A DNA stretch of 64,000 nucleotides from Acutalibacteraceae bacterium (GTDB taxonomy: Bacteria; Bacillota; Clostridia; Oscillospirales; Acutalibacteraceae), in NCBI GenBank assembly GCA_050946775.1, contig JBMNVL010000001.1:3229-67228 (forward strand). The letters are read 5' to 3'. Positions 535 to 61,416 of the stretch are shown here, one piece after another. Both the position numbers and the translations under genes were made by a program. The notes under the pieces are model-generated. The model ran no database searches, was not told the origin of the DNA, and saw only the letters and a program-made list of their open reading frames with translations. Position 1 is the stretch's first letter. Each line of letters begins with the position of its first letter.

Positions 535-2463
535 TTGATCACCAAAATGAAACGCCTGACCGTCGTCGGGCCGCTGGACCGGCTGGACGACGCGATGGAA
601 ATATGCGGCGAAAGCGGCGTGTTTCATCCGGAGGACGCCCTGTCGTTTTATTCCGACACCAAGGACTTTTCCCCCATTCGGGAGGAAAACCCTTACGGCG
701 AGGCGCTCGGCCGGTTGAAGACCGCCATTCGCCGGATCGGCGGTACGCCCCGGCTGACCCGGCCGTCGCCCTTGCCGGCGGACCGCGTCGAGGAATACGT
801 CGCCGGGTTTGAGGCGGACGCCGACCGGGCGGCGGGAGAGACCGACCGGTGGGAAGAGAGGGCGCGTACCCTCGCGCAGGAGATCGAGCAGTTCGAGCAC
901 CTCAAGGGGCTCAACGTCGAGCTGAGCAGTCTGCTGGAATGCCAGACCATCAAGGTGCGGTTCGGCCGACTGCCGGCCGAGGGATACGACAAGCTGGCGC
1001 TTTACGACGACGATCCCTACGTGATGTTTTTCACCGCCGGGCGGGAAAAGCATTATTACTGGGGGATGTATTTTGCGCCGCTGGACTTCGTCGACGCGGT
1101 CGACCGGATCTTTTCGGGGCTGTATTTCGAGCGGGTGCGGCTGCCGGCCGAGACCGGCACGGTGGAGGAGATCCTCGCCCATCTGCGAAAGGAGCACGCC
1201 GACGCCGAGCAGGCGCTCAAAACGGCCCGCGCGGACGCCGCGGCGCTGTGGGAGAAGGAAAAGGACGCCTGCCTGGAGGCCTACACCGCCATGCACCGGC
1301 GGGAGTACCTCTTCGGTCTGCGGCGGTACGCGGCGAAATACCACGACGAGTTTATCGTCACCGGATGGGTGCCGGCCGCCGAGCAAAAAGCGCTGGCCGA
1401 CCGGTTTGCCCCCATCGACGGGGTCAAGGCGACTTTTGAGGCGGCTACCGTCGACGAGCGACATACCCCGCCGGTTAAGCTGCGCAACTGGCGGCTTTTC
1501 CGGCCGTTTGAGTTTTTGGTCGATATGTACGGGATGCCCCGTTACGGCGAGATCGACCCCACGCCCTTCGTGGCGATCACCTACGTGCTGCTGTTCGGCA
1601 TCATGTTCGGCGACGTGGGGCAGGGGCTGCTGGTGTCGCTGGTCGGCTGGCTGATGTGGCGGCTCAAAAAGCTGGACATCGGCCGGGTGCTGATCCCCTG
1701 CGGGATCTCGTCGGCGGTCTTCGGGCTGGTCTACGGGTCGGTGTTCGGATTCGAGCATTGGCTGGATCCGCTCTACAAGGCGGTGCTGGGACTGGACGAA
1801 AAGCCGGTCGAGGTGATGCGCTCGTCGATGACCACCACCATTTTGCTGGCGTCGGTGGGGATCGGCATCGTGCTGATCGTGGTGTCGATGGCGCTGGGGA
1901 TCTATTCCGGCATCCGGCAGAAAAACTGGGAAGCGGCCTTTTTCAGCCCCAGCGGACTGGCCGGAATGGTCTTCTACCTGGCGGTGATCGTCGGGTGCGT
2001 CCTCCAGTTCGTGCTGGGGGTGCCGGTGATGACAACGTGGTACGTCCTCGGGCTGATCGTGCTGCCGCTGATTGTGATGTTTTTGCGCCAGCCGCTGGGC
2101 AAGCTGGCGGCGCGGGATCCCGACTGGAAGCCGGACGGGTGGGGCGATTTCATCCTGCAAAACTTCTTTGAGCTGTTCGAGACGATGCTGTCCTATCTGT
2201 CCAACACCATGTCGTTTTTGCGGGTGGGCGCCTTCGTGCTGGTCCACGCCGGGATGATGATGGCCGTCTTCGCGCTGGCCGATCTGTTCGGGCCATTCGG
2301 GGCGACGGTGACGGTGGTGATCGGCAACGCGCTGGTGATGGTGATGGAGGCGACGCTGGTCGCCATTCAGGTGATGCGTCTGGAATTTTACGAGATGTTC
2401 AGCCGGTACTACAACGGCGACGGACAGATCTTCACGCCCTTGTCGGCTCAGGCCGATTCGTGA
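535..2463 (+). CDS. atpI: V/A-type ATP synthase subunit I (membrane a-subunit)
   Basis: 642 aa. A soluble coiled N-terminal half is followed by multiple hydrophobic helices. Starts at TTG 535 (RBS GGGAGAG) or ATG 547 (MKRLTVVGP...). Operon position fits. Confidence 0.9.
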   Translation: MITKMKRLTVVGPLDRLDDAMEICGESGVFHPEDALSFYSDTKDFSPIREENPYGEALGRLKTAIRRIGGTPRLTRPSPLPADRVEEYVAGFEADADRAAGETDRWEERARTLAQEIEQFEHLKGLNVELSSLLECQTIKVRFGRLPAEGYDKLALYDDDPYVMFFTAGREKHYYWGMYFAPLDFVDAVDRIFSGLYFERVRLPAETGTVEEILAHLRKEHADAEQALKTARADAAALWEKEKDACLEAYTAMHRREYLFGLRRYAAKYHDEFIVTGWVPAAEQKALADRFAPIDGVKATFEAATVDERHTPPVKLRNWRLFRPFEFLVDMYGMPRYGEIDPTPFVAITYVLLFGIMFGDVGQGLLVSLVGWLMWRLKKLDIGRVLIPCGISSAVFGLVYGSVFGFEHWLDPLYKAVLGLDEKPVEVMRSSMTTTILLASVGIGIVLIVVSMALGIYSGIRQKNWEAAFFSPSGLAGMVFYLAVIVGCVLQFVLGVPVMTTWYVLGLIVLPLIVMFLRQPLGKLAARDPDWKPDGWGDFILQNFFELFETMLSYLSNTMSFLRVGAFVLVHAGMMMAVFALADLFGPFGATVTVVIGNALVMVMEATLVAIQVMRLEFYEMFSRYYNGDGQIFTPLSAQADS

Positions 2464-2954: not shown

Positions 2955-3263
2955 ATGCGCTTTTTTCTGATCAGCGACAACGTGGATACCCAGGTGGGGA
3001 TGCGTTTGGCGGGGATCGAGGGCGTGGTGGTGCACGAGGAAAGCGAGGTGCGCCGGGCGCTGACCGACGCCATGGAACAGCCCGACGTGGCGGTCATTTT
3101 AATGACCGCGCCGCTGACGGCGCTTTGCCGGGAGCTGGTGGACGATCTCAAGCTCCATCGCGCCCGGCCGCTGATCGTCGAGATCCCCGACCGGCACGGC
3201 AACGGCCGCGCCGCCGATTCCATCACCCGCTACGTGCGGGACGCGATCGGGATCAAGATGTAA
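2955..3263 (+). CDS. atpF: V/A-type ATP synthase subunit F
   Basis: 102 aa. MRFFLISD..VGMRLAGIEG..VAVILMT matches the pattern of V-ATPase F subunits. Operon position fits. Confidence 0.85.
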   Translation: MRFFLISDNVDTQVGMRLAGIEGVVVHEESEVRRALTDAMEQPDVAVILMTAPLTALCRELVDDLKLHRARPLIVEIPDRHGNGRAADSITRYVRDAIGIKM

Positions 3264-3275
3264 GGAGATACCGGT

Positions 3276-3878
3276 ATGATCGACAACGATAAAAAGACCG
3301 CCAAATTCATCGAGGCGATCACCGCCTACGCGCAGCAGCAGAGTCAGCATATCCACCGGGAGGTGGAGGCGTACAAGGCCGAGCGGCTGGCGAAGGCGGA
3401 GCGGCAGGTGATGGCGGAATCCGCCCGGCTGATCCGGGGGGAACGGGAGAACGCCGGCAACCGGCTGCGGCAGGAGCTGGCCGGACGGGAAGCCGACCGC
3501 CGGGCCGGGCTGATCCGCGAGCGGCAAAAGCGGATGGACGAGGTGTTCGCCGACGCCCGCCGGGAGCTGCTGGCCTACACCGCCACCCCGGCGTACGCCG
3601 ACTGGCTGGCGGCGTCGCTGAGGGAAATGGCGGCGGCGCTGCCGGGCGAGGGTACGGTCTTTTACCTGTGCGAGCGGGACAAAGAGCGGATCCCGGCGCT
3701 GCAGGCGCTTTGTCCGGCCGGCTGCCGCTTTGAGGTGGCCGGGGATATCGCCATCGGCGGTATCCGGGGGATCCAGCCCGCGGCCGGCCTGCTGGCGGAC
3801 GATACGCTGGATACCCGGCTGGAGGAGCAGCGGGACTGGCTGATGGAGAGCATGGGACTGACCATCCAGCCGGTGTAA
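3276..3878 (+). CDS. atpE: V/A-type ATP synthase subunit E (peripheral stalk)
   Basis: 200 aa. A highly charged helical N-terminus (AERLAKAERQVMAE...) precedes a globular C-terminus. Located between F and A. Confidence 0.75.
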   Translation: MIDNDKKTAKFIEAITAYAQQQSQHIHREVEAYKAERLAKAERQVMAESARLIRGERENAGNRLRQELAGREADRRAGLIRERQKRMDEVFADARRELLAYTATPAYADWLAASLREMAAALPGEGTVFYLCERDKERIPALQALCPAGCRFEVAGDIAIGGIRGIQPAAGLLADDTLDTRLEEQRDWLMESMGLTIQPV

Positions 3879-22261: not shown

Positions 22262-22947
22262 GGCGCAGGACGAATAGAGCTGAAAACACAAAAAGTGATA
22301 TATCTCGCTTGCGCTCGATGTGATATTTTTCGCTGGCGCGAAAAGTGATATTGCTCCCTTCGGTCGCAGTGATATTCTATTCGCCTTTTTAGCTGCGCGC
22401 AGCGCAATATCACTCGGCGCAAGCCGAATATAACGCAACGCAATATCACTCGCCGCAAGGCGAATAGAGTTGAAAAAAGCACGCTTTCGCGTGCTTTTTT
22501 CTGTGCTTACCGAACGAATATGCAAAACGGATATAATTAGTAAAAACTGTGTTTTTCGCCTGATTTCGGTTCTCTATGTAATACCCATCCTTAAACGAAT
22601 GAAACCACAAAAGTGAAATATCGAGCTTTGCTCGATGTGATATGTTTGCCTTGCGGCAAACGTGATATTTTTCGCTTGCGCGAAAAGTGATATTATATTC
22701 GTTCCTTCACTCGTCCGCAGGACGAATATCACTGCGAAGCAATATCACTCGACCGAAGGTCGAATATAACTCGTTCCGAAGGAACGAATATAGTTGAAAA
22801 AAACCTCGTCTTTCGACGAGGTTTTTTCTGTGATTATCGAACAAATATGCAAAATGGGAGAAATGGGTAAAAAAGTGTGTTTTGAACCCTGTTTCAGTTC
22901 TATGTATATTACCCAGACTTAAACGAACGAAATCACAAAACCAAACC
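22262..22947 (+). repeat. Tandemly duplicated (2 x ~330 bp plus a partial unit) array of short GC-stem hairpins flanked by GTGATAT / ATATCAC heptamers; each unit ends in an intrinsic terminator and an AT-rich tail
   Basis: Examples: gtgatatttttcgcTTGCgcgaaaagtgatat, gtgatatgtttgccTTGCggcaaacgtgatat, atatcactcgaccGAAGgtcgaatata. Unit ends are ..gaatagagttgAAAAAAGCACGCtttcGCGTGCTTTTTT and ..gaatatagttgAAAAAAACCTCGTCtttcGACGAGGTTTTTT. Confidence 0.8.
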
Positions 22948-24526: not shown

Positions 24527-24601
24527 TGGAGGCGCCACCCAGATTTGAACTGGGGAATCAGGGTTTTGCAGACCCATGCCTTACCACTTGGCTATGGCGC
24601 C
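24527..24601 (-). tRNA. tRNA-Cys (GCA)
   Basis: Reverse complement GGCGCCATAGCCAAGTGGTAAGGCATGGGTCTGCAAAACCCTGATTCCCCAGTTCAAATCTGGGTGGCGCCTCCA. It folds as a cloverleaf with anticodon loop CTGCAAA and an encoded CCA. Confidence 0.95.
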
Positions 24602-24642
24602 ATATTGCAAAAGGCGCCAAACCCTTTGACGCCTTTTGTGTT

Positions 24643-24718
24643 TGGAGCGGCTTACGAGGCTCGAACTCGCTACCTCCACCTTGGCAAGGTGGCGCTCTAC
24701 CAGATGAGCTAAAGCCGC
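24643..24718 (-). tRNA. tRNA-Gly (GCC)
   Basis: Reverse complement GCGGCTTTAGCTCATCTGGTAGAGCGCCACCTTGCCAAGGTGGAGGTAGCGAGTTCGAGCCTCGTAAGCCGCTCCA. Anticodon loop TTGCCAA. Confidence 0.95.
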
Positions 24719-24723
24719 ATGCG

Positions 24724-24799
24724 TGGTGCCTCCGGACGGAATCGAACCATCGACACGGGGATTTTCAGTCCCCTGCTCTACCGACTGAGCTACAGAGGC
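24724..24799 (-). tRNA. tRNA-Phe (GAA)
   Basis: Reverse complement GCCTCTGTAGCTCAGTCGGTAGAGCAGGGGACTGAAAATCCCCGTGTCGATGGTTCGATTCCGTCCGGAGGCACCA. Anticodon loop CTGAAAA. Confidence 0.95.
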
Positions 24800-60147: not shown

Positions 60148-60200
60148 ACACATTCACTCCCGTCCGGAAATGTTCGCCCTCATTGTACCACATATTCCGG

Positions 60201-60252
60201 CAAAAGAAAAGACAAAAAGCAACCGCCCTCTGCCGGACAGGACAGAGGGCGG
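60201..60252 (-). terminator. Intrinsic terminator ending the repeat-containing non-coding unit
   Basis: The minus strand reads CCGCCCTCTGtcctgtccggCAGAGGGCGGttgctttttgtcttttctttt. Confidence 0.75.
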
Positions 60253-60695
60253 GGATTATAACGAAGTTTTTGGACTCACCTATTTCTGTAATGTATTTTA
60301 TATGGAATGGTGTGCATCTATATAAAATGCTTACTTACGGGGTAGGAAAAGTCGCTTTCGTTAGTCCATGGGACCCACCTTTTCGTTTAAGACTTTGGAT
60401 CTTGTCTTTATCGGGAAACCCCGATGCGTTAGGTCATGGGACTCAACCTTTCGTTTTTTCGGCGCTTTTCCGCAGGGTTTTGGCCCTGCCGCCGTAGAGT
60501 AGTTGTTGGAGTCGCGTTTTTCAGAACATGGGACTCACCCTTCGGTTAAGCTGCCGTCCTTGACGGGAGTTCCTGGCCGCATCCATGCACCAAGGCTTGG
60601 ATCTGCGGTTCAACGTCCGTGTACATGGGAGCCACCTCGTTTCGTTCCGGATTGATCCTCATGTGGAGGACCGGGACTCTTTCTTTCCCTTTCGT
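60253..60695 (-). ncRNA. Candidate ~440-nt structured or non-coding transcript carrying repeated SD-ATG units (function unknown)
   Basis: It is bounded by a near-consensus promoter (60703-60731) and a terminator (60201-60252). It holds 5-6 copies of (A)GGTG(A/G)GTCCC, four of them followed by ATG. Only a 26-codon ORF and three 2-codon ORFs are present. Confidence 0.45.
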
Positions 60696-60702
60696 CATCC
60701 AT

Positions 60703-60731
60703 AGTATAGCACGGGCATTTGACGATGTCAA
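60703..60731 (-). promoter_or_regulatory. Near-consensus sigma-70 promoter driving the repeat-containing unit
   Basis: Minus strand: TTGACA-17 nt-TATACT. Confidence 0.6.
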
Positions 60732-60810
60732 TAGGTTTTTTGAAAAAAGTTTATTTATTTTATGAACTTTTTATAAACCCCTGCTGACGTCGGCCGGGAG
60801 AAGTTTCCCC

Positions 60811-60839
60811 TTGACGGCGACGGCGGTTCGGGGTAAAAT
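60811..60839 (+). promoter_or_regulatory. Promoter of the DUF1292 gene
   Basis: TTGACG-17 nt-TAAAAT. Confidence 0.45.
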
Positions 60840-61204: not shown

Positions 61205-61416
61205 CGACGCATCCTGCCCTGTGCGTGGACCGCTGCCTTTTGACCCTACTACAGTTTTGATTCGGGAGCCCGGCTCCGGCGCCGGGATGCAGACCTCCCC
61301 GCTTTGGGCGGGACGAAGGGAGCGCGAACGCGCCGGGCGGCACCCACCTGTTACGTGTCGTAGCAGGTCACTTCGGCAGCATTACGGCAGGGCGGGATAT
61401 TGTTGTTAACAGAAAA

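Follow-up and report, generated by a model that had tools for sequence, protein, structure and literature searches.

A 64,000-nucleotide (nt) stretch of the genome of an Acutalibacteraceae bacterium (contig JBMNVL010000001.1), here called the window, carries on its minus strand a run of short repeats in which a Shine-Dalgarno (SD)-like sequence is followed at a fixed distance by a start codon, usually by a single sense codon, and then by a stop. The best explanation of this element, which we call the minigene RNA, is that it is a member of an undescribed, independently transcribed RNA family of Oscillospirales-type Clostridia, placed back-to-back with a gene for a DUF1292 protein and the gene for 6S RNA. 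The family exists, with definable boundaries, a strand-specific motif and linkage to DUF1292 and 6S RNA. Its building blocks, minigenes of the form SD-start-X-stop, are of a known kind; the dedicated, conserved, stand-alone RNA in which they are arrayed is new.

Layout of the minigene RNA

A promoter and a terminator delimit a predicted transcript of about 490 nt, all features of which lie on the minus strand. The σA-type promoter, TTGACA-17-(TG)cTATACT (60703-60731), matches 11 of 12 positions in a consensus scan and has a TG extension; an UP-like A/T-rich tract (60732-60777) lies directly upstream of it. Transcription would begin at about 60696. The conserved, purine-only 5' leader, GAUGACGAAAGGGAAAGAAAGAGUCCC (60673-60698), includes a startless, SD-like AAAGGRAAGA as well as a degenerate sixth copy of the repeat, AAAGAGTCCC (60682-60673), recovered as a weight-matrix match at RNA index 20. 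At the other end, the intrinsic terminator (60201-60252) has a 12-bp stem (60252-60223, with 9 G-C pairs), a 6-nt loop and a T-rich tail reaching to about 60201.

Five repeat units lie between these boundaries. Unit 1 (60546-60636) has the core GGTGGCTCC (60636-60628) and an ATG at 60626 that opens a 26-codon open reading frame (ORF), MYTDVEPQIQALVHGCGQELPSRTAA, whose stop ends at 60546. The next three units are minigenes of two codons: in unit 2 (60521-60539), the core GGTGAGTCC (60539-60531) and a C precede ATG-TTC-TGA (60529-60521); in unit 3 (60429-60447), GTTGAGTCC (60447-60439) and a C precede ATG-ACC-TAA (60437-60429); and in unit 4 (60361-60379), GGTGGGTCC (60379-60371) and a C precede ATG-GAC-TAA (60369-60361). 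Unit 5 (60272-60280) has the core GGTGAGTCC followed by AAAAAC and no start, and belongs to a conserved terminal class described below. The spacers contain hairpins: GCAGGG-ccaaaa-CCCTGC (60472-60489) and ATCGGG-gttt-CCCGAT (60410-60425) were read from the sequence, the former with comparable inter-unit hairpins in relatives, and inverted-repeat analysis located an AU-rich hairpin (60295-60328) that includes the conserved element AUAUAGAUG (about 60323-60315). The RNA as a whole is predicted to fold more stably than its shuffles (z = −3.7).

The repeat is confined to this region. The 13-mer GGTGAGTCCCATG occurs with zero to two mismatches at 60624-36, 60527-39, 60435-47 and 60367-79, all on the minus strand and within 270 nt, and a fifth copy at 60268-80 of the same strand has three mismatches and no ATG. 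The only other match with at most two mismatches in the 64-kb window, at 3851-63, is intragenic coding sequence without an A-rich flank. The unit can be written AAARR-GGTGAGTCC-N-ATG, in five or six copies, and a direct-repeat analysis of the window also recovers it, as a 38-nt unit family. An original prediction made from this sequence had described the independent promoter-to-terminator unit, the four ORFs and the small hairpins between units; these descriptions hold, and both the promoter and the terminator are conserved in relatives.

Relatives in gut Clostridia

Relatives were collected from contigs with DUF1292 homologues and then from one genome per GTDB species scanned with the DUF1292 protein, which gave 76 loci; metagenome contigs and IMG/VR viral contigs were scanned with a two-unit DNA pattern. 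The promoter/leader signature lies upstream of DUF1292 in 37 of the 76 species loci, and 34 of those 37 have at least one scored unit. Carriers share one layout, consisting of an A/T tract, the promoter TTGACA-17-(TG)nTAtAnT, a purine-only leader (R)TAGATGACAAAAGGAAAGA and the repeats, closed in most of them by a strong terminator. Promoter and leader are conserved at a constant distance in about 41 related loci, and the startless AAAGGRAAGA, at about +8 to +20 of the leader, is conserved across the family.

The members fall into short-type RNAs of about 300-340 nt with four units, found in at least 14 species, and long-type RNAs of about 450-1,040 nt with up to eight units, to which the RNA of the window belongs. 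Carriers are labelled Acutalibacteraceae, Oscillospiraceae, Ruminococcaceae or simply "Clostridia" and come from human, ruminant and other guts; two of them, Youxingia wuxianensis NSJ-64 (locus L076) and Anaerotruncus massiliensis AT3 (L079), are cultured and have divergent members. The metagenome scan added further lineages, including arrays of four to seven units produced by a recent 70-nt tandem duplication. One metagenomic lineage (L105, 4030-4270, plus strand; L116; L112) has four or five near-identical tandem repeats of about 70 nt, each consisting of GGTGAGTCC-C-ATG-AGA-TAA and a hairpin with a GNRA loop (GTTCC-GAAA-GGGGAAC), which indicates that arrays grow by recent tandem duplication.

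Conservation is concentrated in the units. In the comparison of short-type RNAs the units are near-invariant while the spacers between them diverge freely, and units are kept across species whose DUF1292 proteins are only 40-75% identical. Repeats that were merely the decayed 5' ends of a duplicated gene, a possibility raised with the original prediction, are thus not what the relatives contain.

An element AUAGAUG or UAGAUG occurs twice in the RNA of the window, at 60695-60702 right after the −10 box and internally at 60315-60323 (both minus strand). In long-type RNAs, the distance from the internal copy to the unit or unit array downstream of it is about 35-60 nt, and the element is also present in L001, L002, L003, L076 and L079. 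It could be a relic of a fusion between an ORF module and a short-type array, or a processing site.

Searches for a known family returned nothing within the RNA, in line with the original prediction, which knew of no described family of this layout. At the gathering threshold, Rfam 15 matched only tRNAs, 6S RNA and Gut-1 RNA in the whole window, all of them outside the minigene RNA; in the minigene region itself, matches at E ≤ 10 were chance matches of at most 19 bits. Eighteen related loci gave only 6S RNA, T-box and tRNA matches, none within the minigene RNA, and the long-type homologue in L002 gave no match at E ≤ 1. Literature searches on the motif, minigene arrays, ribosome sponges, DUF1292 and the transcriptomes of carrier genera turned up no description of the RNA, its motif or its architecture. 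A mobile or repetitive element (repetitive extragenic palindrome, miniature inverted-repeat transposable element or satellite) was also considered and rejected: neither the rest of the 64 kb nor the flanks of related loci contain clustered copies, and within the RNAs none are antisense. The two-unit scan of IMG/VR yielded 20 stretches, all chance matches or an unrelated 63-nt satellite, so that a phage or bar-like origin is not supported. That satellite contains GGTGAGTCC-TGTG (L083/L089, IMGVR_UViG_3300033233_000046) and was set aside since it has neither the A-rich flank nor the short ORF and lies in a different context.

Composition of the repeat unit

To avoid circularity, a weight matrix was built on the core region alone (−6 to +8, AAARR-GGTGAGTCC), excluding the start codon and everything beyond it. 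Applied to 41 RNAs, this matrix gave 131 sense-strand matches, two matches in shuffled sequences and not one in the reverse complements; chance repetition is therefore excluded at the level of the family. For the composition of the unit, 163 distinct units from related loci and metagenome members were pooled; their counts are phylogenetically non-independent, but compatible substitutions among orthologues are independent.

The triplet one base past the core is ATG in 103 and GTG in 28 of the 163 units, and in the rest it is nearly always AAG or AAA; the proposal of SD-like repeats followed by a start at fixed spacing is thereby borne out in 131 units. In 129 units the start is followed by a sense codon, and in 79 of these a stop comes third (TAA 43, TGA 25, TAG 11; TGG never occurs), against a background of 4.5% stops among all triplets of these RNAs. 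Twenty-nine different second codons are in use, ATG-TAC and ATG-CAC being frequent. ORFs of three codons account for 10 of 126 listed units, and two units are a bare start-stop (ATG-TAA). Orthologous units exchange TGA, TAA and TAG, ATG and GTG, or GGC and GGT with the mini-ORF preserved, and one conserved short-type unit opens an 11-codon ORF, of which the most divergent member retains the length but not the sequence. The distance between adjacent units is at least 46 nt and mostly 46-69 nt. No clear signal of termination efficiency is seen in the base that follows the stop (G 31, A 30, C 11, T 7). These patterns indicate that start, stop and spacing are under selection and that the sense codon drifts.

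The startless units form a class of their own, typically GGTGAGTCC-AAAGG and often the last unit before the terminator. The final copy in the window had been taken to have lost its ATG; it belongs instead to a conserved startless subclass, GGTGAGTCC-AAA/AAG, that precedes the terminator in many relatives, among them L001, L002, L119, L122, L105 and L080. At L078 (about 3100-3400, minus strand), L105 (4400-4470, plus strand), L073 and L112, a startless GGGTGAGTCC-RAAGG precedes a hairpin whose loop, UGAAAG, is conserved and whose stems covary (AGUGA/UCACU, AAGCAA/UUGCUU, AGUGA/UCGCU). Startless unit and hairpin may together form a structured sub-module of the family.

Two structural readings of the unit were tried and rejected. 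The base biases of the second codon agree with a hairpin GUCC-NRU-GGNC that spans the start codon, but no covariation is seen when core position 5 changes, and a K-turn or C/D-box-like reading of GUGA...CUGA is ruled out by the predominance of UAA stops.

The first unit of long-type RNAs differs in opening a longer ORF. In about 20 long-type species this ORF has 20-36 codons and follows the pattern M-[YHN]-x-[DE]-x-[ED]-[PAS]-Q. Its third positions vary: codon 4 consists of an invariant GA and a free third base, and all four CCN codons are found before CAG or CAA. Constraint at the amino-acid level combined with such third-position variation suggests that the first ORF is probably translated into a real peptide. 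Short-type RNAs lack this ORF yet keep four units, promoter, leader and terminator, so the peptide cannot be the common function of the family. No long ORF on either strand of the RNA region is conserved. The first small ORF extends over 84 codons in L111 (minus strand, about 4086), a metagenome variant of the L002-type RNA. The constrained first ORF, the linkage to DUF1292 and 6S RNA, and the conserved ATG-less unit go beyond the original prediction.

Proposed mechanism

An AUG or GUG at a fixed distance, any of the stops, a free sense codon and ribosome-sized spacing together argue that what reads the units is an initiating ribosome; the spacing of at least 46 nt in particular suits a ligand of ribosomal size. 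We propose, tentatively and with a confidence that falls somewhat short of an even chance, that the family consists of trans-acting RNAs whose ribosome-loading, self-terminating minigenes form a sink for ribosomes and initiation. Each unit (an A-rich tract, the core GGUGAGUCC, one spacer base, AUG or GUG, usually one sense codon, and a stop) would capture a 30S subunit or 70S ribosome; initiation, at most one peptide bond and termination would then all take place within reach of the helix between SD and anti-SD. Acting in trans, the RNA would be a sink or decoy for initiating ribosomes and also for initiator tRNA, one aminoacyl-tRNA, and release and recycling factors. No initiation would follow where 30S subunits bind to startless units or to the SD-like 5' leader, and in long-type RNAs the first unit would additionally drive the conserved ORF of about 25 codons. 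Physiologically, translation might thereby be throttled or sensed, by analogy with what the neighbouring 6S RNA does for RNA polymerase.

In E. coli, minigenes with two codons, a strong SD and UAA maximise re-initiation without dissociation as well as release of peptidyl-tRNA (PMC8708949). The units of the family match all three of these favourable features. A bolder version of the proposal, which we regard as speculative and on balance unlikely, is an abundant translational counterpart of 6S RNA whose minigenes hold ribosomes in futile cycles of one peptide bond or in idle 30S complexes, and so set or sense free initiation capacity; with a different A-site codon in each unit, the array could be a multi-amino-acid "hungry codon" platform that reports the supply of aminoacyl-tRNA, for example to RelA.

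Pairing calculations are compatible with ribosome binding. In these models the core GGUGAGUCC can pair with the 3' tail of 16S rRNA: with the presumed Bacillota tail GGAUCACCUCCUUUCU, the mean duplex energy of the units is −14.8 kcal/mol, compared with −6.0 for shuffled units, and in the minimum-energy duplex GGUGA and UCC are paired with one bulged base. Core position 4 is A or G, both of which pair with U, position 5, the predicted bulge, can be any of the four bases, and UCC is essentially invariant, a pattern of variation that fits the proposed pairing. For the short-type RNAs, the covariation term of RNAalifold is +0.45 and supports no structure other than the terminator, whose stems show compensatory changes. 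A predicted pairing between units 1 and 3 of this subfamily was discarded, as it involves invariant columns only and carries no information.

Several points weigh against the ribosome sink. Every function considered here, from transcription of the RNA through ribosome binding to a physiological effect, is deduced from sequence. The tail used for pairing (GGAUCACC...) is that of Bacillota in general, which we assume for these genomes, and the bulged pairing to GGAUCA is something we infer ourselves. The near-invariant spacer AGUCC exceeds what a SD sequence usually requires. TTG starts are absent among the units and the first position of the start is always a purine, which a reader different from initiator tRNA could also explain. 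Not every site needs initiation, given that about 20% of units lack a start codon. Partition-function folding was uninformative, in that the cores are not predicted to be preferentially unpaired. Titration of ribosomes would, moreover, need the RNA to be very abundant.

Alternative explanations

Five other explanations were ranked below the ribosome sink. The highest-ranked of them, though improbable, is a sink like the bar regions of phage lambda, in which drop-off of fMet-X-tRNA, or consumption of initiator and elongator tRNA, rather than ribosome occupancy, throttles growth, for example at entry into dormancy or under phage attack, in the way that bar minigenes act in E. coli limited for peptidyl-tRNA hydrolase (Pth); in a variant of it, the fMet-X dipeptides are themselves the product. 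The units do have the features reported to maximise the toxicity of minigenes, namely a length of two codons, a strong SD and a preference for UAA among the stops (43 of 79), and the many second codons in use could draw in many tRNAs. Yet bar toxicity needs a particular scarce tRNA, and the sense codon of the units is unconserved and includes the common GGC, TAC and GCT; about a fifth of the units are startless and some ORFs run to 3-36 codons; a near-consensus promoter of the housekeeping type would be odd for a toxic element; and the family was not found among IMG/VR viral contigs. Next in rank, and rather improbable, is an mRNA for the small peptide (MYxDxEPQ..., about 25 amino acids), whose units would supply ribosome cover and stability in the manner of STAB-SD sequences, or tune expression. 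The amino-acid-level constraint on the first ORF speaks for this, as does the leader's SD-like AAAGGAAAGA, which lacks a start as 5' stabilisers do. The short-type RNAs of at least 14 species, however, are entirely without the ORF, the units lie 3' of it, where bound ribosomes would give no protection from 5' exonucleases, and stabilisation needs no strict architecture of start and stop. The next candidate, also improbable, is a sponge for a protein or small RNA that recognises GGUGAGUCC and that might normally bind it where translation of its target genes begins, the start and stop being target mimicry and a means of aborting accidental translation. Ordinary ribosome-binding sites are less conserved than the core with its "spacer" AGUCC, startless units retain this core, and single-stranded repeats between hairpins resemble sponges of the CsrB/RsmZ or CrcZ type. 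A protein, on the other hand, is unlikely to accept exactly AUG or GUG at a fixed distance and ignore the preceding base; unwanted translation should select starts away, and 80% of units keep theirs; and the minimum spacing of 46 nt exceeds what small RNA-binding proteins need. Nor does the motif stand at gene starts, since in 0.8 Mb of related DNA this initiation region is not used by any ORF of at least 40 codons, and complementary GGACTCACC sites show no excess in the window. The RNA-binding-protein sponge offered with the original prediction is disfavoured for CsrA-type proteins, whose defining GGA is found within −6 to +8 of the core in only 48 of 163 units (29%), with cores not predicted to lie in loops.

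It is very unlikely that the RNA acts in cis, as a leader or attenuator in which loading of the minigenes controls read-through of the terminator into the downstream gene, here one for a phosphoesterase. The terminator lies about 50 nt upstream of the phosphoesterase start, and two-codon regulatory ORFs are known in leaders, for example LEE1 and axe-txe (PMC3262186, PMC8708949). The downstream gene changes with lineage, however, and has a predicted extended −10 promoter of its own past the terminator, while the conserved linkage is to the opposite, divergent side. The suggestion that the RNA is an unusual leader accordingly loses ground, a covarying terminator ending the RNA in front of a gene that differs between lineages. 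Least probable of all is non-functional debris, whether a repeat that arose by chance or duplicates of the small ORF's 5' end that have since decayed. There is indeed a likeness between the units and the start of the first ORF, covering its initiation region and first two codons (ATG-TAC and ATG-CAC are frequent), and L105 and L116 contain 70-nt tandem duplications. Conservation of the units across species with DUF1292 proteins of 40-75% identity and diverged spacers, retention of start, stop and spacing through compatible substitutions, and the absence of any antisense match effectively refute it.

The flanking genes

The gene for the DUF1292 protein (PF06949; 60905-61204, plus strand) is divergent from the minigene RNA and has its own promoter-like site at 60811-60839. 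Its product is an acidic protein of 99 amino acids, 100% identical to one from an Acutalibacteraceae metagenome-assembled genome. A divergent DUF1292 gene adjoins the repeat RNA in every contig that is long enough, down to about 40% DUF1292 identity. The 6S RNA gene (ssrS; 61208-61402, plus strand; Rfam RF00013, 55.1 bits against a gathering score of 46.4) starts 3 nt past the DUF1292 stop codon. The same order, DUF1292 and then 6S RNA, is found in 14 of 18 tested related loci, some of which are without the repeat RNA, and DUF1292-ssrS looks like a conserved co-transcribed unit in these Clostridia. The arrangement is listed for L001-L003, L009, L011, L024, L046, L058, L066, L072, L076, L078 and L105, and with a question mark for L007. 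The DUF1292 neighbour gave no match in a sequence search of the PDB and only uninformative "hypothetical protein" entries in NCBIfam, and an AlphaFold2 model of the protein (predicted local distance difference test score 71.5) gave no significant fold match.

Past the terminator, the minus strand encodes a secreted, metallophosphoesterase-like protein of 768 amino acids with a dockerin-like tail. The phosphoesterase gene was correctly placed next to the terminator by the original prediction, but this neighbour is not conserved in relatives, in which it is the DUF1292/6S side that is kept: the gene 3' of the RNA encodes, depending on lineage, a phosphoesterase, a dockerin protein, a Big_14 protein, a predicted membrane protein or lipoproteins. 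An extended −10-like sequence, TGTGGTA(C/A)AAT, lies right past the terminator in the window (60182-60192, minus strand), in L076 (Youxingia) and in L079 (Anaerotruncus), and in these three loci it precedes different signal-peptide proteins.

Two further observations concern other RNAs. At 22721-22796 and 24530-24799 (both minus strand), the window contains a Gut-1 RNA (RF01706, 51.3 bits, barely exceeding the gathering score of 50) and a three-tRNA gene cluster, and L002 has a T-box leader (2003-2244, minus strand, 104 bits) upstream of a gene for a PALP-domain enzyme.

Relation to known systems

The bar regions of phage lambda are isolated sites in a phage genome, were found through a host pth phenotype and use a specific rare codon, AUA. 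With them and with synthetic two-codon minigenes the family shares an SD-like site at functional spacing, an AUG, one sense codon and a stop. It differs from bar in having three to eight tandem units on a dedicated chromosomal RNA, bounded by promoter and terminator and conserved across bacterial families, and in its free sense codon, invariant 9-nt core, startless units and conserved longer first ORF. With 29 different sense codons in use, one tRNA alone is unlikely to be the target.

Translated SD-ATG-NNN-stop elements with a regulatory role have been described in the LEE1 leader of enterohaemorrhagic E. coli and as mg2 of axe-txe (PMC3262186, PMC8708949). Those are single cis elements at a critical distance from a cistron, whereas the minigene RNA ends at a terminator and has no conserved downstream cistron. 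The RNAs CsrB and RsmZ, which act on CsrA, and CrcZ, which acts on Hfq, are likewise stand-alone RNAs with many short SD-like motifs between hairpins, and titration is the presumed mode of action here as well; the minigene motif, however, is not A(N)GGA, has a start and stop at fixed spacing, recurs at distances of at least 46 nt and would have the ribosome as its ligand. With 6S RNA the family may share, speculatively, the logic of an abundant RNA that imitates what a core machine acts on, the open promoter for RNA polymerase and the initiation region for the ribosome. There is no relation in sequence or structure between the two, and the 6S model matches the neighbouring gene only.

Gram-positive 5' stabilisers include the STAB-SD of cryIIIA and the ribosome-protected leaders of hbs and aprE. 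The startless, SD-like AAAGGRAAGA near the 5' end of the minigene RNA could bind 30S and so block 5' exonucleases, but the likeness covers the leader and does not extend to the internal start-X-stop array. Dual-function small RNAs such as SR1 of B. subtilis and RNAIII of S. aureus resemble long-type members in combining a small ORF with other RNA elements. Their second function is seed base-pairing, whereas the other elements of the minigene RNA are minigenes, and its short types have no small ORF.

Significance

Two-codon minigenes have so far been laboratory curiosities, as in lambda bar and synthetic constructs, or single elements of cis-acting leaders. Arrays of them, kept by selection on a dedicated RNA in several families of Clostridia that abound in gut and rumen, suggest that ribosomes which initiate and immediately terminate serve a purpose. 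The family may offer a natural system for SD-tethered re-initiation, early drop-off of peptidyl-tRNA and pairing of mRNA to the GGAUCA of 16S rRNA. Even the most conservative outcome, a peptide mRNA stabilised by ribosome-binding units, would make this a new, widespread and recognisable RNA family that annotation has missed. If the RNA does titrate or sense ribosomes, it would be the first natural ribosome-directed decoy RNA, a translational analogue of the 6S RNA encoded beside it.

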